51,553 bases of DNA. Origin: a bacterium. Its GTDB lineage: Bacteria > Verrucomicrobiota > Kiritimatiellia > UBA8416. The translations under genes were made by a program, and so were the position numbers. Under the pieces are notes generated by a model. That model was not told the DNA's origin. It saw nothing but the letters and a program-made list of their open reading frames with translations, and searched no databases. This document shows, piece by piece, positions 32,741 to 50,905 of the stretch. Position 1 is the stretch's first letter. Every line of letters begins with the position of its first letter. The stretch is from contig JAIFLS010000029.1 in the NCBI GenBank assembly GCA_020048935.1, positions 1-51,553 on the forward strand, read 5' to 3'.

Positions 32741-32921
32741 CTATAGGGCGTGGTGATTTATTCCAAGAGCGGCACGGGAGGAACGCCGTCCTCGGCGTCC
32801 GCTGCGCATGAAAAGGTGCATGGCGAAGCCTTTCTTGAAAACAGCGTGGTTAGCCAGGCATTCGGACAGCGAGACGCTGTCCCTCCCGTTGTGTATCCAA
32901 ATAAATCAACACGCCCTATAG
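32741..32921 (+). repeat. MITE-like structured repeat, copy 1 (181 bp), with ~22-bp terminal inverted repeats
   Basis: TIRs are ctatagggcgtggtgatttatt and aataaatcaacacgccctatag. Internal hairpins are gacgccg-tcct-cggcgtc and ggacagcg-aga-cgctgtcc, with long-range pairing acgggagg / cctcccgt. It is ~90% identical by eye to the inverted copy at 50423-50665. Confidence 0.8.
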
Positions 32922-40334: not shown

Positions 40335-40515
40335 GATGCCTCCTTGTGTTCTCGATAGGAAAACAAAAAGACGTGATTCTATTTGGATGGGAGTCCAATT
40401 GAAAGATAAATAATTAAACCGCAACGCGGACCAGGGCGGGATGCGATTATGGGATTGCTTGTTGTCGTGCGGGATGAAATAATCTTCGAGTGTTTCCGGG
40501 TTGACGAAAGGCAAG

Positions 40516-41409
40516 ATGAAACGCGGATTGGGCATAGCGCTGGTGAGACGCTTCGGGCAGATGGCGGTGTTTGCCGGCATCGGCCTTGTGGCAGGTGTGC
40601 GGGCCGAGGAGGATGCGACGCCCGGCAGGCTGGAGCACTGGGAGCACGTCGAGTGGGTGGAGCATCCCTCGAATGATGGTGACAGCTTCAGTGTGCGGTA
40701 CGACGGGGCTGAGTACCTGCTGCGCTTGTATTATGTGGATGCACCCGAGACGATCGCCAGCTCCGAAACGGATGCGCGGCGCGTACGAGATCAGTCGCGC
40801 TATTTCGGTCTGGAAAGTCATCGCGACACCGTACATTTCGGTCAGGCAGCGGCGGATTTCACGCGGACGATGCTGGCGAAGCCGTTCACGGTATACACGG
40901 TGCGCGCCACGGCACCGGGACGATCGGTCTCGCGGCGGATCTACGCGTTTGTGGAGACGTCCGACGGCGCGGATCTGGCCGCGCTGCTGGTCTCACGCGG
41001 TCTGGCACGCGCGTATGGTGTGCGCCGGGCCTTGCCGGACGGGACCTCGGCGGTGGATGCCGCGGAAGGATTCTCGGATCTGGAAAGCGCGGCCATGCTG
41101 GATCGGGCAGGTCTATGGGCGGCGTCGGATTCAAGGCGACTGATCGCTGCGCGGGCGGAGTCGCGCCAGGAGCTGGCGGAATTGCGCGATATCGATACCT
41201 CGATACGTTTTCCGGCGGGACCGATCGACATCAACACGGCCGGGCTTCGCGAGCTTGAAATGCTGCCGGGGGTGGGGCCGGTCACGGCCCGGAATATTGT
41301 GGCGCATCGGCCTTTCCACAAGCCGGAAGATCTGTTGCGGGTGCCGCGCATAACGGCGCTGACCGTCACAAACATCCTGCCGCATTTGAAGTGGGCGCCC
41401 GAAGACTGA
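40516..41409 (+). CDS. Secreted staphylococcal-nuclease-like (SNase/thermonuclease) domain fused to a ComEA-type helix-hairpin-helix DNA-binding domain
   Basis: Signal peptide MAVFAGIGLVAGVRA. SNase pattern NDGDSFSV....YLLRLYYVDAPE, LVSRGLARAYG, AGLWA. The C-terminal IDINTAGLRELEMLPGVGPVTARNIVAHRPF looks like ComEA HhH. Confidence 0.8.
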   Translation: MKRGLGIALVRRFGQMAVFAGIGLVAGVRAEEDATPGRLEHWEHVEWVEHPSNDGDSFSVRYDGAEYLLRLYYVDAPETIASSETDARRVRDQSRYFGLESHRDTVHFGQAAADFTRTMLAKPFTVYTVRATAPGRSVSRRIYAFVETSDGADLAALLVSRGLARAYGVRRALPDGTSAVDAAEGFSDLESAAMLDRAGLWAASDSRRLIAARAESRQELAELRDIDTSIRFPAGPIDINTAGLRELEMLPGVGPVTARNIVAHRPFHKPEDLLRVPRITALTVTNILPHLKWAPED

Positions 41410-41551: not shown

Positions 41552-41660
41552 TTCGGGATGGCGCTCCGCAATTTCCAGCAGACGCAGGGCAGGAGCGGAC
41601 GGTTTGCGGCGACCTTGTTCCCAACTGATTTCCGCCCGACTTGTGGGTAATAGTAAGGTG
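41552..41660 (-). pseudogene. Possible remnant of an XRE/HigA-type HTH antitoxin (C-terminal half only)
   Basis: The frame reads ..LLLPTSRAEISWEQGRRKPSAPALRLLEIAERHPE, which matches the common ..WEQGRR.P.G.A..LL.....P tail of HTH antitoxins. It has no start codon or N-terminal half. Confidence 0.3.
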
Positions 41661-41693
41661 GTGTGGCACTCGTGGCTGGCTGACTACCCTCAG

Positions 41694-42164
41694 TCAGTCA
41701 CGGGGAGCCGATTCGGAGGCTTTGAGTTCTTCCAAGGCCTCGGCATCTGCCAAATCCTTAGTTCTGCCCGATGCGCGCTTGTTGGTGACAAGGTCATCAA
41801 CCGAGGGAATCCGCACCTGGATTCCCTCAATCTCCACAATCAATGAATTCCTGAATGTAGGCTCAAACTGCAGTCCCGAGGCGGCGGTGATGATATCGAT
41901 CCGTCTTGGAGCAACACCGATTTGAAACACCGTTCCCTCTTTCTCAAAATCGGCTCTGCTGACATTGTGCAGGGGAGCACCGAAGCGAAGAAGTGCCCGC
42001 AAAACACCATCAGCATTGTCTGGTGACGGCAACACCCAGATATCAATGTCCATTGTTGCCCGCGGATACCCGTAGGCAGCTAAGGCGTATGCCCCTACGA
42101 GAAGGAAATTAACCTTCTCGTCGACTAATGCCTGCAACATGTCTCTGTAATCTTCGTTCAACAT
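41694..42164 (-). CDS. Nucleotidyltransferase-fold protein (DUF6036/AbiEii-like), putative toxin-antitoxin-type cassette gene
   Basis: VNFLLVGAYALAAYGYPRATMDIDIWV (NTase G-x/DxD-like core), ..RIDIITA.., IPSVDDLVTNKRASGRTKDLADAEAL. Confidence 0.6.
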   Translation of the reverse strand: MLNEDYRDMLQALVDEKVNFLLVGAYALAAYGYPRATMDIDIWVLPSPDNADGVLRALLRFGAPLHNVSRADFEKEGTVFQIGVAPRRIDIITAASGLQFEPTFRNSLIVEIEGIQVRIPSVDDLVTNKRASGRTKDLADAEALEELKASESAPRD

Positions 42165-42300
42165 TATGACGTTTGCTCAGCGATGCGACTTCACGGGTGA
42201 GGGGCCAAACGAGACCGATTCGTTCTGCAGGCGTCCCGGGTACTATCTCGTTGGCCGGGGCGCCCGTCATTCGAAATGTAACTGTGTGCGTGCGATCCAT
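42109..42300 (-). CDS. Small partner protein of the nucleotidyltransferase (63 aa)
   Basis: ATG at 42300. MDRTHTVTFRMTG...PAERIGLVWPLTREV....RLQRHV.. It overlaps the downstream NTase ORF by 56 nt in another frame. Confidence 0.45.
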   Translation of the reverse strand: MDRTHTVTFRMTGAPANEIVPGTPAERIGLVWPLTREVASLSKRHNVERRLQRHVAGISRREG

Positions 42301-42345
42301 ATAATAATAGTACCAATATTCGCGATTGCAGCAATCTTTATCTAT

Positions 42346-42390
42346 CCCGCCAGCCAGTAGCCAGTGTTGCACTGGCTACTGGCTGGCGGG
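42346..42390. repeat. Perfect 21-bp inverted repeat with a 3-nt loop
   Basis: cccgccagccagtagccagtg-ttg-cactggctactggctggcggg, read directly. No AAC/GTT ends and no T-tract. Confidence 0.9.
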
Positions 42391-42525
42391 CCCTATTAAT
42401 TTCCTATTAATTTCTTTCTTTCCGAAATCAGACGCCGCGTATTCTTCTGTCCAATCAGGAGGAAGATATGCCAGAGCCACGCACGCGACAAATGCGGACA
42501 AAATGATTGCTATTGTTTTCTTCAT
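42376..42525 (-). CDS. Possible 49-aa lipoprotein/secreted peptide (below the ORF-track cutoff)
   Basis: The ATG at 42525 lies 8 nt after the attC-like site. MKKTIAIILSAFVACVALAY... has a lipobox-like FVAC. Its 3' end runs into the palindrome and a cctattaattt x2 repeat, so the C-terminus is doubtful. Confidence 0.35.
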   Translation of the reverse strand: MKKTIAIILSAFVACVALAYLPPDWTEEYAASDFGKKEINRKLIGPASQ

Positions 42526-42533
42526 ATTACTCA

Positions 42534-42604
42534 ACCCAACGTTATTTTGAGGGTTGAGATGAACCGCCGCGGTTCATCGAATACCCTCCAAAAACTGGTT
42601 AGGC
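42534..42604 (-). other. attC-like recombination site (71 bp)
   Basis: Plus strand reads ACCCAAC...GTTAGGC; minus strand reads GCCTAAC...GTTGGGT, matching RYYYAAC/GTTRRRY. The arms ttttgagggt/accctccaaaa are imperfect, with a central hairpin gatgaacc/ggttcatc. It lies 13 nt after the stop of 42618..42884. Confidence 0.7.
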
Positions 42605-42617
42605 CAATTCCTTGTCA

Positions 42618-42884
42618 CTAGCTTTTGTTTATCTTGGATAACTCTTCGGAGATCTCCTCCAATAGCCTAGTGATTGAGGCGCGATGATAGAGGTATGTAA
42701 ACAATGGGGTCCCAATGAAGGAGGGCAAGATTACTGCATTGAGTAAATTCTCCGAATGGAATTTCGAGGTGACTGCCACGACTAGCCCAACATATGAAAG
42801 ACAGGCAAATATAAGCATTAGGGGTGGGTACCATCTTGGATTCGGGGGCTCTCTTCGACTTCTAATTCTGGCTATGCGGTTCAT
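42618..42884 (-). CDS. Cassette ORF: small 2-TM membrane protein, unknown function
   Basis: AAGGAGG RBS. 88 aa with hydrophobic segments PLMLIFACLSYVGLVVAV and VILPSFIGTPLFTYL. Confidence 0.55.
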   Translation of the reverse strand: MNRIARIRSRREPPNPRWYPPLMLIFACLSYVGLVVAVTSKFHSENLLNAVILPSFIGTPLFTYLYHRASITRLLEEISEELSKINKS

Positions 42885-42903
42885 TGCAACCTCCTTTTAT
42901 GAT

Positions 42904-42967
42904 GCCTAACGTCGTGAATCAGACTTTGGCGCGCAAGCGACAATAGTCAGCATTCATCTTGTTGGGA
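42904..42967 (-). other. attC-like recombination site (64 bp)
   Basis: GCCTAAC (42904-42910) ... GTTGGGA (42961-42967). On the minus strand R' = GTTAGGC. The imperfect arms are gtgaatcagact/agtcagcattcat. It lies 3 nt after the stop of the 42971.. ORF. Confidence 0.7.
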
Positions 42968-42970
42968 ATC

Positions 42971-43441
42971 CTATTCATTCAAATCCAATGCCTCACCCTT
43001 GAGTTCGAGAAGCCGCTGGACTCGGGCCTGGAGCAGACGCAGCTTTGCCGCAGGCAAGGCTGCTTTGTAACCGGAGCCCCCCGACCAGCCGTTCGCCACG
43101 AATGTTGCTTCAAGATCTGCAAGCTCCTCCCACTTGGACTGGGCCTGATTGAAAAGGGCAAGCTGGTCGGGACTTCGTGCAGCGAGAAGCTTGCGATGCG
43201 AGGCTAGAATCTCCTCCATCCGCTTCGTCAGTACGTCGATTCCGTGGAGAGCCCGTGCCATCGTCTCAAGCGTGGATTGCCCGTCGCCCACATACTTCTG
43301 CCAGTCGTATTCTTCAGGAGGAGTCTTTGACCAGTCGGCCTGTGGAAGAACGCTGGGCTTTGGATGCTGATACGTGGGCGCAGGTGGACTTGAGACGCAC
43401 CCGACAAGGAAAAGCATGCCCATTATCAATATCTTCTTCAT
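42971..43441 (-). CDS. Cassette ORF: lipoprotein with a DUF1311 (LprI-like lysozyme-inhibitor) type domain
   Basis: MKKILIMGMLFLVGC lipobox. ..LALFNQAQSKWEELADLEATFVANGWSGGSGYKAALPAAKLRLLQARVQRL resembles DUF1311. I prefer the ATG at 43441 over the track's TTG at 43447. Confidence 0.65.
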   Translation of the reverse strand: MKKILIMGMLFLVGCVSSPPAPTYQHPKPSVLPQADWSKTPPEEYDWQKYVGDGQSTLETMARALHGIDVLTKRMEEILASHRKLLAARSPDQLALFNQAQSKWEELADLEATFVANGWSGGSGYKAALPAAKLRLLQARVQRLLELKGEALDLNE

Positions 43442-43449
43442 ATTCAATT

Positions 43450-43518
43450 CCCAACGTTTGCAATCATGGGATTTTCAACCCGCAGGGTTGAAAAGTACCA
43501 TGCAGTGCTTGGTTGGCC
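43450..43518 (-). other. attC-like recombination site (69 bp)
   Basis: CCCAAC (43450-43455) ... GTTGGCC (43512-43518). Central 10-bp hairpin ttttcaaccc/gggttgaaaa and imperfect outer arms. It overlaps the stop codon of 43518..43895. Confidence 0.7.
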
Positions 43519-43895
43519 TAATCTTTCCGAGTATTCTCTTCTTTGTTCAGCTTCGTCACTTCCCGGGTTTTAAAGTCAATCGAGTAGCGGTCGTTATGTT
43601 CGTTTGTCGCGATGAGCTTTCCGGCATCAATTTCCAATTTCTTGATGAATACCAACTGAACGTCCTCTTCCTCATTGGGGTCGATCTCCACGTTGTAGAC
43701 TTTTTTATCCCACAACATCTTGCCGGTGGCCTTGTCCCAGGCTTCAACAACACCCATCTTTTTGTGAGCGCTTGGAGCTCGATATTCAATGCCACCATAG
43801 ACAACCGGCGTGACCTTGGCGGGAGCTATGCGCTCCGCAAAAGCTGCTGGCGCAAGCAGTGCCAACATCGCCACGATAAGTGATACGTTCTTCAT
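43518..43895 (-). CDS. Cassette ORF: small secreted protein, unknown function
   Basis: AAGGAGGAGG RBS. Signal peptide MKNVSLIVAMLALLAPAAFA. 125 aa. Confidence 0.6.
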   Translation of the reverse strand: MKNVSLIVAMLALLAPAAFAERIAPAKVTPVVYGGIEYRAPSAHKKMGVVEAWDKATGKMLWDKKVYNVEIDPNEEEDVQLVFIKKLEIDAGKLIATNEHNDRYSIDFKTREVTKLNKEENTRKD

Positions 43896-43987
43896 CTGTA
43901 TCCTCCTCCTTGCTAAGAAAGCATTCCTATTATGCTTCTAATTGCTTAAACGTCCATGCTCCAGGGTTTCTTCATTCTTTTTTCAAG

Positions 43988-44056
43988 GCCAACGCTCACG
44001 TTCTCCCTTGAGCCACCCGTCCGCGGGTGGCGAATAGGGAGAACGTGAGCGTTGGC
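43988..44056 (-). other. attC-like recombination site (69 bp)
   Basis: 21-bp arms GCCAACGCTCACGTTCTCCCT / AGGGAGAACGTGAGCGTTGGC, an internal loop, and an inner 8-bp hairpin gccacccg/cgggtggc. It lies 5 nt after the stop of 44062..44502. Confidence 0.7.
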
Positions 44057-44061
44057 TCCGA

Positions 44062-44502
44062 TCATTTCTCTTTCATTAAGTATGAGCTGAGGTCCAGAAA
44101 GACGACATCCAGAGAGGAGCGTTTCTCATCCTCCCAGAAGCACTCGAACTTGATGAATGAATCCAAAATGCGGTCCTTCCCAACTCCGACCATAATCTCC
44201 TTCCTGCCGGTCGCATCGGTCTTGGTTTCCAACGGCACGTCGAGTTGCTGTGGGTATGGGGCTATTTCTGTGCCGAGAACGAATGCAGTCCGGAACAATC
44301 TCTTGAGCCGCGTATCTTCCTTCGGGACAGAGACCGTGAACGTGTACCAGTTCTGCACTGCGTTCGTGCGAACTTGAACCGTTATGGCACAGTTGAGGTC
44401 TGCCTGATTCTGCCTGGTCATGACATTGGTGGACGTCCCGGCTTGAACAGCGGAAGAGAGCACAACGAGAATGGGGAGGGAAAGCCATCGCCTGTATTTC
44501 AT
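44062..44502 (-). CDS. Cassette ORF: secreted protein, unknown function
   Basis: Signal peptide MKYRRWLSLPILVVLSSAVQA. 146 aa. A GGAGA RBS lies shortly after the attC-like site. Confidence 0.6.
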   Translation of the reverse strand: MKYRRWLSLPILVVLSSAVQAGTSTNVMTRQNQADLNCAITVQVRTNAVQNWYTFTVSVPKEDTRLKRLFRTAFVLGTEIAPYPQQLDVPLETKTDATGRKEIMVGVGKDRILDSFIKFECFWEDEKRSSLDVVFLDLSSYLMKEK

Positions 44503-44525
44503 GATTTCATCTCCATCTTGCTTGA

Positions 44526-44582
44526 GCCAACGTTACTTCTCTGGCGCGGCCTTCAGGACGTAGCCAGCAGAAATTTGTTGGC
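44526..44582 (-). other. attC-like recombination site (57 bp)
   Basis: GCCAAC (44526-44531) ... GTTGGC (44577-44582). The imperfect arms share TTCT..CTGGC. It lies 1 nt after the stop of 44584..45117. Confidence 0.65.
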
Positions 44583-44583
44583 A

Positions 44584-45117
44584 CTATTTCGCTCTTGCGA
44601 CCGTTATCTCCAGGAGGACAATCTTCTTTCCCTGCGGTGACGAGTCCTCCTTCACGACATGAGGGTACCCTGATAGTCCGTTTGCATCCTGTGCGAGACC
44701 CCGCGCCCTGATGTGGAAGCTGCCACCTCTACCCCCTCCAGACAACTCCCGCACCAATGCGGGGCCGTGTGCCCAGGTGAATTTGCCCGGCTCAGATTCA
44801 TAGACAGTGGGGTCGCTCGAGGACGAGAGTGATCCAGCGAGGGCGTTCTCGGCTTTCGTCAGCGCGGTGCTGAGCCCATTCGCAAACATATCAACGGTGG
44901 TCCCTGTCAAGTCGTCAATTGGGAAGACAAGAGTCCAGCATCTGACCGATGTAGGCTGGGCGCTTAGTGGCAGTCGGTTGTCCATCATCTGCCCGTTGTT
45001 GCTGGTGGCGTACTTTTCTATGGCCCCGGAGATAAGGTTCCATCTGCTGTCATTATCTTGCCCGCAACCGCAGATGAGCAGCAATGCTACCAAGAAAGCT
45101 TTACGTTCTGAACGCAT
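44584..45117 (-). CDS. Cassette ORF: lipoprotein, unknown function
   Basis: AAGGAGA RBS then the ATG at 45117. MRSERKAFLVALLLICGC lipobox. The track ORF extends to 45192. Confidence 0.6.
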   Translation of the reverse strand: MRSERKAFLVALLLICGCGQDNDSRWNLISGAIEKYATSNNGQMMDNRLPLSAQPTSVRCWTLVFPIDDLTGTTVDMFANGLSTALTKAENALAGSLSSSSDPTVYESEPGKFTWAHGPALVRELSGGGRGGSFHIRARGLAQDANGLSGYPHVVKEDSSPQGKKIVLLEITVARAK

Positions 45118-45201
45118 ATCTGCATTTCTCCTTTGTCTAGTGCCAACAGTACTTATTATGCCTACTTCATTTTTTGTGACCCTGTGTTTCACTAAGGTCA
45201 G

Positions 45202-45229
45202 GATATAATTGTTGCAGATCGATTGTCAA
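45202..45229 (-). promoter_or_regulatory. Candidate sigma70-like promoter reading into the cassette array
   Basis: The minus strand reads TTGACA (45229-45224), a 16-nt spacer, then TATATC (45207-45202), ~85 nt upstream of the first cassette ATG. This is pattern only. Confidence 0.25.
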
Positions 45230-45279
45230 TTGCATAAAGTACGCCACTGTAAATGATTAATAGCGCTTTGAAAGGTGTC

Positions 45280-45382
45280 AACCTAGCTGCGAAGTAGGCT
45301 TTATGCAGATTGCCAGGTAGGCTTTATGCTCTCACCAGGAAATGATCGTCAGCATGTCTGCATAAAGCCTACCTCGCAGGTT
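45280..45382. other. att-like long imperfect palindrome abutting the truncated intI start
   Basis: AACC-tag-CTGCGAAGTAGGCTTTATGCAG (45280-45308) pairs with CTGCATAAAGCCTACCTCGCAG-GTT (45358-45382), 21/22 in the arms plus a 4-nt bulge. An extra copy of GTAGGCTTTATGC lies at 45317-45329. It differs in sequence from the other five sites. Confidence 0.5.
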
Positions 45383-45402
45383 AAAGAGCAAAGGATCCAA
45401 CG

Positions 45403-46110
45403 ATGAATGACCCGGTTTTTAACAATTTCACGCGGGCGCGGCGAGGACGGAAGGTGCCAACGGTGCTGACACAGGAGGAGTGCAAGCGGCTCTTCGACGC
45501 CATGGACGGAACCTACCGGCTGATGACGCAACTGATGTATGCGGCCGGGCTGCGGCTGACGGAACTGCTGCGGTTGCGTGTACAGGATGTGGATCTGGAG
45601 CGTCGGCAACTTAGCATCCAGTTCGGCAAGGGTGGCAAGAGCCGCTATTCGATGATACCCGACAAGCTGGTGCCTCTGTTGACCGAGCATCGGGAGCGGC
45701 TGAGGGAACTGTATAAGCGCGACCGCGAAGCGGGATTGCCGGGTGTCGAATTGCCGGAAGCTCTGGAGCGGAAGTGGCCGAAGGCGGGGGAGAAATTCGT
45801 CTGGTTCTGGTTCTGGCCTTCTCGCAACTTGATGCGCGATCATTGTAATGGTATTGTGCGGCGGCACCATTTGCTGGATGTGACGTTCCAGAAGGCCATC
45901 AAGGAGGCGGTGGAGAAAGCGGGGTTTGATAAACGGGTCTCGTCGCATACGCTTCGGCATTCGTTCGCCACGCATCTATTGGCCAGCGGAACGGGTATCC
46001 GCGATGTGCAGGATTTGCTGGGACATGCGGATATATCGACCACGGAAATCTATCTCCACACGGCAAAATATGCGGGGGTTGGTATACGCAGCCCCTTTGA
46101 TGTTCTCTGA
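45403..46110 (+). CDS. intI: Integron integrase (IntI-type tyrosine recombinase), catalytic domain only; lacks about 100 N-terminal residues
   Basis: It aligns by eye with IntI1/VchIntIA from ..RKVPTVLT to the end. Shared features are GLRLTELLRLRVQDVD, KGGKSR, the IntI-specific patch LPEALERKWPKAGEKFVWFWFWPS...RRHHL, HTLRHSFATHLL, VQDLLGHADISTTEIYLHT and GIRSPFD. An in-frame TAA lies 18 nt upstream of the ATG. Confidence 0.85.
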   Translation: MNDPVFNNFTRARRGRKVPTVLTQEECKRLFDAMDGTYRLMTQLMYAAGLRLTELLRLRVQDVDLERRQLSIQFGKGGKSRYSMIPDKLVPLLTEHRERLRELYKRDREAGLPGVELPEALERKWPKAGEKFVWFWFWPSRNLMRDHCNGIVRRHHLLDVTFQKAIKEAVEKAGFDKRVSSHTLRHSFATHLLASGTGIRDVQDLLGHADISTTEIYLHTAKYAGVGIRSPFDVL

Positions 46111-46153
46111 TGTGCTTTGTTACTAGGCTGTTTCGCAGTCAGAAGGTTCTTAC

Positions 46154-50422: not shown

Positions 50423-50665
50423 CTGAAGGGCGTGTTGATTTATTTGGTTACACAACGGGAGGGACAGCGTCTCGCTGTCCGAACGCCCGTCTAACCACGC
50501 TGTTTTCAAGAAAGGCTTCGCCATTCACCTTCTCATGCGCAACGGACGCCGAGGACGGCGTCCCTCCCAGCAACGGACGCCGGGGACGGCGTCCCTCCCA
50601 GCAACGGACGCCGAGGACGGCGTCCCTCCCGTGCCGCTCGTGGAATGAATCAACACGCCCTTCAG
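50423..50665 (-). repeat. MITE-like structured repeat, copy 2 (243 bp, inverted relative to copy 1), with three tandem 31-bp hairpin modules
   Basis: TIRs are ctgaagggcgtgttgatttatt and gaatgaatcaacacgcccttcag. The modules (a/c)gcaacggacgccg(a/g)ggacggcgtccctccc lie at 50538-50568, 50569-50599 and 50600-50630. Copy 1 has one module, and the length difference is 62 bp, i.e. 2 x 31. Confidence 0.8.
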
Positions 50666-50817: not shown

Positions 50818-50905
50818 TTGGCAACGTGCGGGACGAGGAGGATATCCGTGAGGCAATATATTTGGCAACGTGCGGGACGAGGAGGATATCCGTGAGGCAA
50901 TATAT
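50818..50905 (+). repeat. Perfect 44-bp tandem duplication covering the SD and start codon of the SNase paralog
   Basis: ttggcaacgtgcgggacgaggaggatatccgtgaggcaatatat occurs at 50818-50861 and again at 50862-50905, identical by direct reading. Confidence 0.95.

Follow-up and report, generated by a model that had tools for sequence, protein, structure and literature searches.

The 51,553-nt stretch of contig JAIFLS010000029.1 (assembly GCA_020048935.1; hereafter the window) carries a genuine chromosomal integron with five complete mobile cassettes, from an uncultured bacterium of the PVC (Planctomycetes-Verrucomicrobia-Chlamydiae) superphylum, and we regard this identification as secure. Relatives are annotated as Kiritimatiellia, Victivallales or Verrucomicrobiota. 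An earlier interpretation made from the letters alone (the sequence-only reading) had proposed an integron here, and every feature that it listed was found in the ORF (open reading frame) map and the sequence where it had been placed. These are an IntI-type recombinase ORF; small minus-strand ORFs divergent from it, running leftward down to 41694; imperfect palindromes of 57–73 nt that come 0–13 nt after the stop codons of five ORFs and end in xCCxAAC and GTTxGx; and an array richer in A+T than its surroundings (GC 0.44–0.59, against 0.60–0.72 in both flanks). The integrase, the site next to it and the five cassettes are arranged as follows.

45403–46110, plus strand: ΔN-intI, an integrase gene of 235 aa, linker and catalytic domain only
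45293–45373: three copies of the motif AGTAGGCTTTATGC, direct at 45293 and 45316 and inverted at 45360–45373, just upstream of the intI start
45229–45200, minus strand: candidate Pc promoter, TTGACA, 18-nt spacer, TATCCT (or 16-nt spacer, TATATC), reading into the array
45170–45147, minus strand: attI core, AGTAGGCATAATAAGTACTG|TT, with the crossover between 45147 (G) and 45146 (T)
45146–44531, minus strand: cassette 1, 616 bp, 177-aa ORF (45117–44584) with a lipobox-like leader
44584–44524, minus strand: attC1, after the 177-aa ORF
44530–43993, minus strand: cassette 2, 538 bp, 146-aa ORF (44502–44062) with a signal-peptide-like leader
44058–43986, minus strand: attC2, after the 146-aa ORF, a perfect 21-bp palindromic stem
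43992–43455, minus strand: cassette 3, 538 bp, 125-aa ORF (43895–43518) with a signal-peptide-like leader
43519–43448, minus strand: attC3, after the 125-aa ORF
43454–42910, minus strand: cassette 4, 545 bp, 156-aa ORF (43441–42971) with a lipobox-like leader and a weak LprI-like match
42968–42903, minus strand: attC4, after the 156-aa ORF
42909–42540, minus strand: cassette 5, 370 bp, 88-aa membrane-type ORF (42884–42618)
42605–42533, minus strand: attC5, after the 88-aa ORF

Cassette boundaries were set at G|TT, with the attC5 crossover placed by hand at 42540|42539.

The product of the integrase gene, ΔN-IntI, was assigned to the IntI family by several comparisons. It contains a PF00589 tyrosine-recombinase domain (Pfam, E 8e-39) and passes the NCBIfam model TIGR02249 (286.5 bits, cutoff 265), of which it covers only positions 86–315 of 315. 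Its best solved relative is IntIA of Vibrio cholerae (VchIntIA, 2A3V residues 92–318, E 3.4e-55), not Xer (Xer proteins match no better than E 1e-24). Two models of tyrosine-type DNA invertases, NF007370 and NF007371, match it weakly. In our reading of the 2A3V alignment, catalytic residues R51, K76, H182, R185, H208 and Y217 correspond to R135, K160, H267, R270, H293 and Y302. The IntI-specific patch (LPEALERKWPKAGEKFVWFWFWPS...RRHH), which lies between patches II and III in the region of the I2 helix, gives a gap-free alignment with VchIntIA residues 202–241 and is invariant or nearly so in clade alignments. The closest database proteins (80–86% identity) are named integron integrase and come from metagenome-assembled genomes (MAGs) of Kiritimatiellia, Verrucomicrobiota and Desulfovibrionales. 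The SAM-like core-binding domain PF13495 is absent from the ORF, from the three frames upstream and from the rest of the 51.5-kb window, so ΔN-IntI is a deletion derivative of an IntI rather than a complete one, a point that had escaped the sequence-only reading. An N-terminal domain encoded as a separate gene was also considered and was rejected, because no coding sequence for it exists anywhere in the window.

All five palindromes have the R'' (RYYYAAC) and R' (GTTRRRY) boxes of attC sites. When folded as single strands on the strand opposite the ORFs, four of the five are more stable than their shuffles (z −2.6 to −12); in the exception, attC5, a C/A mismatch leaves the R box open in the minimum-free-energy fold. 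The sequence-only reading had recommended a check with an attC covariance model, and we built our own, seeded with the five window sites after trimming, registration by hand and padding with N to equal length. Two other approaches were discarded: MAFFT alignments of whole or trimmed sites, in which the inner arms were misaligned, and a regular-expression and folding-energy scan for AAC...GTT hairpins, which returned about 50 hits per strand in the GC-rich window and missed three of the five real sites. The model was rebuilt as R2 from 14 hits in related intI loci, with attC5 outside its training set, and was run on both strands of the window and 67 related loci (557 kb), with hits taken at E ≤1. 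In the window, R2 recovered the five sites and nothing else above noise in 51.5 kb, with attC5 scoring 32 bits. Of the 64 hits overall, 63 lie on the strand opposite to intI; the remaining one is palindromic attC2 read from its second strand. The related loci account for 58 hits, and 57 of these, spread over 26 loci, fall on the 5' side of intI, where chance would place only 17% (P 1.7e-42). An Rfam scan of the whole window gave no match, which is uninformative on attC.

The sequence-only reading had described the palindromes as heterogeneous and sharing little beyond their R boxes. The R boxes are indeed shared (AAC and GTT are invariant in 60–64 of the 64 family hits), but there is also a common internal layout: an R'' box nGCCsAAC, an unpaired spacer AA(G) opposed by tGAC, 5 bp, an extra base on the ORF-proximal arm, another 5 bp, a loop of 3 to >60 nt and an R' box GTTsGs. 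The spacer mismatches (A/C, A/A, G/G) are conserved. Pairing in the L helix reaches 95% (28–38% in slid controls), and compensatory changes occur in each of the 10 pairs, in an alignment that was fitted to the model. The extra base lies on the R''–L'' arm in four of the five window sites and 60 of 64 family sites, its bottom-strand identity being C (40 sites), G (13), A (4) or T (3). Each attC would be expected to work as a folded single strand, with an AAC/GTT R box, a 3–4-nt unpaired spacer, a 10-bp L box bearing a single bulged base on the ORF-proximal arm, and a variable loop. As a separate observation, the assembly of JGI sample 3300001765 breaks near attC2, where one contig (L080) ends and another (L082) begins around cassettes 2 and 3.

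The attI crossover was located by comparison with two other loci that have the same intI allele, an ENA contig (L002) and a Victivallales MAG (L003). These match the window at 92–95% identity through the gene and 255 bp upstream of it, and the homology of all three ends exactly at ...AAGTACTG|TT, beyond which the cassettes are unrelated (GTTGGCA, GTTAGCC and GTTGGGC in the window, L002 and L003, respectively). The core AAC|AGTGTTATTGAGCCTAC is common to more than 20 relatives, and divergence begins immediately to its left. The start of cassette 1, TTGGCAC, is complementary to the R'' box of attC1, GTGCCAA, and the first cassette of L002 starts with TTAGCC, matching the R'' box GGCTAA of its own attC. 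We also considered whether intI and attI might together form a cassette; this was rejected, as the right-hand homology boundary falls at the intI stop codon and has no G|TT junction.

Two further lines of evidence concern cassette movement. Across 26 adjacent pairs of sites, the outer five bases of R'' can pair with the R' of the site before it at a mean of 4.23 of 5 positions, compared with 2.15 for a site's own R' and 2.08 at random (p 4.7e-6); the pairs in the window score 5, 5, 5 and 4. Units that had each been circular and were opened at G|TT would leave this mark; terminators cannot explain it. The other line is a polymorphism of the kind that the sequence-only reading had proposed looking for. 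A metagenome contig 99–100% identical to the window (L085) lacks exactly 42909–42540, the 370 bp of cassette 5, and a sister sample keeps the cassette; the junction in L085 is CACGACG|TTGGGTTGAG, with the flanks joined as CACGACG|TTGGGTT. Related platforms, moreover, have entirely different cassettes rather than the same units in a fixed order, and no homologues of the window's cassette proteins were found in related arrays. One apparent cassette replacement, a '143-aa' gene in L081, proved to be only a different start-codon call. In the proposed mechanism, IntI-type recombination at G|TT would bring cassettes in and out, using attI (45147|45146) and the R' box of each attC.

Full-length relatives in the clade were used to reconstruct how the N-terminal half was lost. 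These proteins are 468–480 aa long, have both PF13495 and PF00589, and consist of a conserved N-terminal extension of ~100 aa, a variable low-complexity linker, the PF13495 SAM-like domain and the catalytic domain. Their genes start ~12 nt after the inverted AGTAGGCTTTATGC copy. The extension has no Pfam match (MDxxPIxFDDWE..YREAIVKFRYWLRxTGK..WKKSYL..RFE.R.EALRWYYKEG; e.g. L004:238-1677 and L013:6599-8002), and gene callers usually overlook it. The window protein begins MNDPVF, which matches the native full-length start M-x-x-x-P-[IV]-x-F, and its junction, MNDPVF|NNFTRARRGRK, joins that start in frame to the linker before the catalytic domain. The allele is thus the product of an in-frame deletion that joined the first roughly six codons of a ~470–480-aa gene to the linker and removed the extension and the SAM-like domain. 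A derivation of 'MND' from the 'EMNDVPTAG' with which the SAM-like region begins was rejected, as the real full-length start is ~145 codons further upstream.

Similar deletions occur elsewhere in the clade. Other in-frame fusions of the native start to the catalytic domain were found in P0009 (MDTQPILFDDW|DPGDF), P0020/L073, P0027/L074 and P0063, and three more alleles (L038, L011/P0008 and P0034) have lost the SAM-like domain alone; by our count there are at least five junctions of the former kind and three of the latter. Deletions limited to the N-terminal region are in frame in all eight cases, a count that comes from our own reading of the sequences and from an unfair sample, since some cases were found via called proteins. 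Among deletions that reach the catalytic domain, the one in L023 is out of frame with the native start, and those in L026, L032/L069, L062 and L064 leave pieces in different reading frames. With such small counts, partly from called proteins, this contrast is suggestive only. The deletion in the window is present in three alleles (window, L002 and L003), which lie in three genomic contexts and are followed by three different first cassettes. For P0027, another ΔN allele, contigs from six samples share a start point ~253 nt upstream of the gene (...TAAAC), as population-level cassette heterogeneity at attI would be predicted to produce.

The truncated gene is under purifying selection. Comparisons of the three ΔN alleles gave dN/dS of 0.19, 0.11 and 0.08 (binomial p 3e-5 to 1e-14), and none of the three has a stop codon or indel at up to 8.6% nucleotide divergence and dS up to 0.31. 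Full-length pairs at similar dS range from 0.05 to 0.23, which includes the ΔN values, so constraint has not been relaxed. Since selection retains the catalytic residues and the IntI patch, we infer that the 235-aa protein is functional and probably participates in cassette recombination, including the recent events, either weakly alone or together with a full-length IntI encoded elsewhere.

That the locus might not be an integron, its palindromes being intrinsic terminators or REP-like (repetitive extragenic palindromic) elements in an operon beside an unrelated Xer-like recombinase, is a reading to which we give practically no credence. It could draw on the position of the hairpins after stop codons, on the perfect palindrome of attC2 and on the empty Rfam scan. 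However, no T-run terminators were found after the palindromes on the cassette strand, the conserved AAC...GTT ends are complementary to the preceding site and not to their own other end, sites of this class keep to the cassette side across 26 intI loci, the recombinase has the IntI patch and scores above the cutoff of the IntI model, and the precise absence of cassette 5 from L085 is among the observations that already refute it. Each of the three refuting checks that the sequence-only reading had set (attC covariance model, here our own; recombinase family; fixed order in relatives) likewise favoured an integron. A decaying integron, in which ΔN-intI would be a dead pseudogene, the array frozen like a cluster of attC sites lacking an integrase (CALIN), and the signals of selection and polymorphism artefacts, is improbable too. 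About one-third of intI genes are pseudogenes (PMC2426708), the clade is full of deletion derivatives (L023, L025, L026, L030, L032, L062, L064 and L069), and the attC of the terminal unit (described below) has already been lost. Against decay stand an ORF kept intact, with low dN/dS, in three diverged alleles, the in-frame N-terminal deletions (from a sample that was not fair) beside the frame-splitting catalytic ones, the three first cassettes behind one attI, and the precise loss of cassette 5 from a near-identical variant. A more serious alternative, though in our view still an unlikely one, is that the integron is real and ΔN-IntI catalytically irrelevant, with a second, full-length IntI encoded elsewhere acting in trans and the short protein kept for another function, such as dominant-negative or titrating control of recombination or autoregulation through the AGTAGGCTTTATGC repeats. 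Two intI loci occur in one MAG in three of ~28 clade MAGs (e.g. L010/L026 and L015/L030), and the attI core and attC type of the window belong to the same family as those beside full-length relatives, so recognition in trans is probable. On the other hand, there is no second intI or N-domain fragment in the 51.5-kb window, the L003 contig has none either, the 5.8 billion proteins searched include no full-length one above 86% identity to ΔN-IntI, and the catalytic residues and attC-recognition patch are as constrained as in full-length proteins, which a regulatory role would not obviously require.

Taking these together, we consider it probable that the locus is a chromosomal integron whose in-frame N-terminally deleted, selected, 235-aa IntI participates in cassette recombination. 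A bolder proposition is possible and is put forward tentatively: that catalytic-domain-only IntI is a functional, selected form, produced several times independently in the PVC clade by in-frame removal of the N-terminal half, with the ΔN lineage of the window (dS ~0.3, unchanged constraint, three genomic contexts) still inserting and excising cassettes. A number of points weigh against these interpretations. Tyrosine recombinases normally need the N-terminal domain to clamp DNA, and its loss would be expected to cripple the enzyme. The usual view of a truncated intI gene is that it is inactive (Xanthomonas preprint, 10.1101/2025.06.18.660453; Nemergut 2008, PMC2426708). With two intI loci present in some MAGs, a full-length IntI in trans could explain all of the cassette traffic. 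The differences between ΔN alleles are patchy along the gene, which suggests that some recombination may have occurred; no patch could be attributed to the sampled full-length relatives (best nucleotide identity 77%), and gene conversion from unsampled full-length paralogues could carry over a signal of purifying selection. The attC model is home-made and was seeded from the window's own sites. Extrahelical bases T12'' and G20'' of the attC bottom strand are reported to be conserved (PMC2727003), whereas in 40 of our 64 sites the extra base is G on the ORF strand (C on the bottom), and no second extrahelical base was seen in the family alignment. The bulge and unpaired spacer that the sequence-only reading had expected folding to reveal are missing from attC2, a perfect palindrome without any strand-discriminating feature, both strands of which score with the model. 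The C-type bulge, the absent second extrahelical base and the symmetry of attC2 are possibly clade-specific features. Finally, both the recombination activity of the 235-aa protein and the function of Pc are predictions from sequence comparison.

Compared with sedentary chromosomal integrons, of which the V. cholerae superintegron with VchIntIA and its V. cholerae repeats (VCR) is the example, the locus shares an intI divergent from the array with attI between them, units made of a small promoterless ORF followed by an attC with RYYYAAC...GTTRRRY ends and a G|TT crossover, and an attC that folds into a hairpin of R box, unpaired spacer, L box and variable loop, in most sites with one extra base on the R''–L'' arm. 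Both arrays consist mostly of cassettes of unknown function, include one toxin-antitoxin-like unit and are A+T-richer than the chromosome. Unlike the superintegron, the array here is small (five attC), its sites are heterogeneous rather than one VCR-like family, the bulge is mostly a bottom-strand C and not G, there is no second extrahelical base, and the integrase lacks its N-terminal half. The platform also has a different chromosomal setting in each of three genomes, and a same-genus genome lacks it at the syntenic site, so it has not been sedentary at this locus in the long term.

A precedent for a chromosomal array beside an intI with a large deletion is found in the Xanthomonas integrons with truncated or inactivated intI and in CALINs. 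In Xanthomonas, strains that share an intI lesion mostly have identical arrays, and such a gene is taken to be inactive (10.1101/2025.06.18.660453); in contrast, the deletion allele shared here is under purifying selection, has three first cassettes and lies beside an array with precise cassette presence/absence. Full-length IntI proteins of the PVC clade (L004, L013; P0003–P0007) have the same attI core, AGTAGGCTTTATGC repeats and attC type, and their catalytic domains are 80–86% identical to that of the window protein, which differs from them in lacking the ~100-aa extension, the variable linker and the PF13495 domain. Like ΔN-IntI, DNA invertases of the FimB/FimE type (~200 aa) consist of a catalytic domain only, and show that such an enzyme is able to function with the help of accessory proteins. 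The two are not closely related in sequence, and FimB/FimE act on double-stranded inverted repeats rather than folded single strands, which makes this an analogy only.

In surveys, a truncated intI is routinely counted as dead and the array beside it as frozen. The half-length integrase of this locus is under constraint equal to that of full-length relatives, and the array next to it is still changing. Should the 235-aa protein recombine folded attC sites alone, attC recognition and catalysis would need only the C-terminal domain with the IntI patch, and integrons scored as inactive on account of a truncated intI would need re-examination. As an integron, the locus is a well-resolved example from a poorly studied phylum group, with attI, crossovers, attC architecture and cassette polymorphism obtained from comparison alone. 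Our literature search, whose coverage is incomplete and does not prove novelty, returned no account of a conserved integron integrase that lacks the N-terminal domain and none of integrons in Kiritimatiellia.

The region between intI and attI contains further conserved elements. The AGTAGGCTTTATGC arrangement (direct copies 23–24 bp apart and one inverted copy) is present upstream of intI in ~50 related loci, nearly all of those in the clade, whether the gene is full-length or deleted, and the copies are identical in the three ΔN alleles although the N-terminal extension of IntI is gone. The repeats may serve as arm-type sites or as an operator. The attI crossover is adjoined by one more copy, a fourth that is only partial (AGTAGGC...). 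The candidate Pc matches the promoter consensus at 10 of 12 positions, in a region where promoter-like sites are no more numerous than in shuffles, and loci throughout the clade keep a TTGAC(A/C) block equally far from the motif repeats. If active, it would read leftward on the minus strand through the cassette array.

As for the cargo, six of the eight array ORFs (41694–45117) have signal-peptide-like, lipobox-like (LICGC, LVGC, FVAC) or membrane-spanning leaders, which suggests a possible bias toward cell-envelope or secreted proteins. Pfam, NCBIfam and defence-system models gave no firm family assignment for the array proteins, and the only match to a defence-system model was a weak one (AbiEii), to a nucleotidyltransferase in the terminal unit. 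This unit adjoins the chromosome at the left end of the array and has the following features.

42539–41620, minus strand: terminal unit, 920 bp, no recognisable attC
42525–42376, minus strand: 49/52-aa ORF, no attC-type site after it
42390–42346: perfect hairpin, 21-bp stem and 3-nt loop (CCCGCCAGCCAGTAGCCAGTG CAA CACTGGCTACTGGCTGGCGGG)
42300–42109, minus strand: 63-aa ORF, overlapping the nucleotidyltransferase ORF
42164–41694, minus strand: DUF6036/AbiEii-like nucleotidyltransferase (Pfam DUF6036 27.2 bits, above cutoff; AbiEii match weak)
41649–41619, minus strand: weak attC remnant, not significant

The sequence-only reading had ended the integron at 41620 and given each ORF its palindrome. 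At this end that did not hold: no demonstrable attC marks the boundary, and both the 49/52-aa ORF and the nucleotidyltransferase ORF are without such a site. A terminal attC after the nucleotidyltransferase was sought with the model run with filters off, by folding 41600–41700 and through the expected R'' box AACCCAAC, and none was found. The hairpin at 42346–42390 is unique in the window and overlaps the stop of the 49/52-aa ORF, and it has no AAC/GTT ends, T-run or match to the attC model. A possible toxin-antitoxin pair is formed by the 63-aa ORF and the nucleotidyltransferase; the terminal unit would then be such a pair that has lost its attC. Its boundary with the neighbouring gene, which encodes a staphylococcal-nuclease-like protein fused to a ComEA-like HHH_3 domain (40501–41409), is constant in six metagenome contigs. 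Another staphylococcal-nuclease-like gene lies on the other side of the integron (L001:10733-11512, ~50.8–51.5 kb in the window).

On the right, the surroundings were compared with those in a genome of the same genus (L088, GCA_964609395.1), which has no integron and is 90.5% identical in nucleotide sequence over the NrpR-PLD-DHH block. Homology begins 2 nt before the NrpR start codon, which marks the synteny break, a feature that the sequence-only reading had not noted. In L088 (9714–10000), a glutamate dehydrogenase gene and a 287-bp intergenic region precede the NrpR-like gene, and in the window the intI stop is 43 nt from the NrpR start (46111–46153), so that the native NrpR promoter region appears to have been replaced. 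The right-hand neighbours of the platform differ in L002 and L003, and together with the integron-free L088 this means that the platform has not long been fixed at the locus.

Some population variants (L001:800-2790 and the end of L081) have an insertion sequence (IS) element 8 nt after the attC4 R' box. It has terminal inverted repeats CTGTCAAAAA(A)TTG and encodes a 489-aa DDE transposase; past the element, the sequence has no relation to that of the window and includes a glycoside-hydrolase-like ORF. Tandem repeats are present toward the right end of the window (31 bp ×3 at 50539–50630 and 44 bp ×2 at 50818–50905), and relatives of the 31-bp repeat lie on the opposite strand at ~32745–32917.

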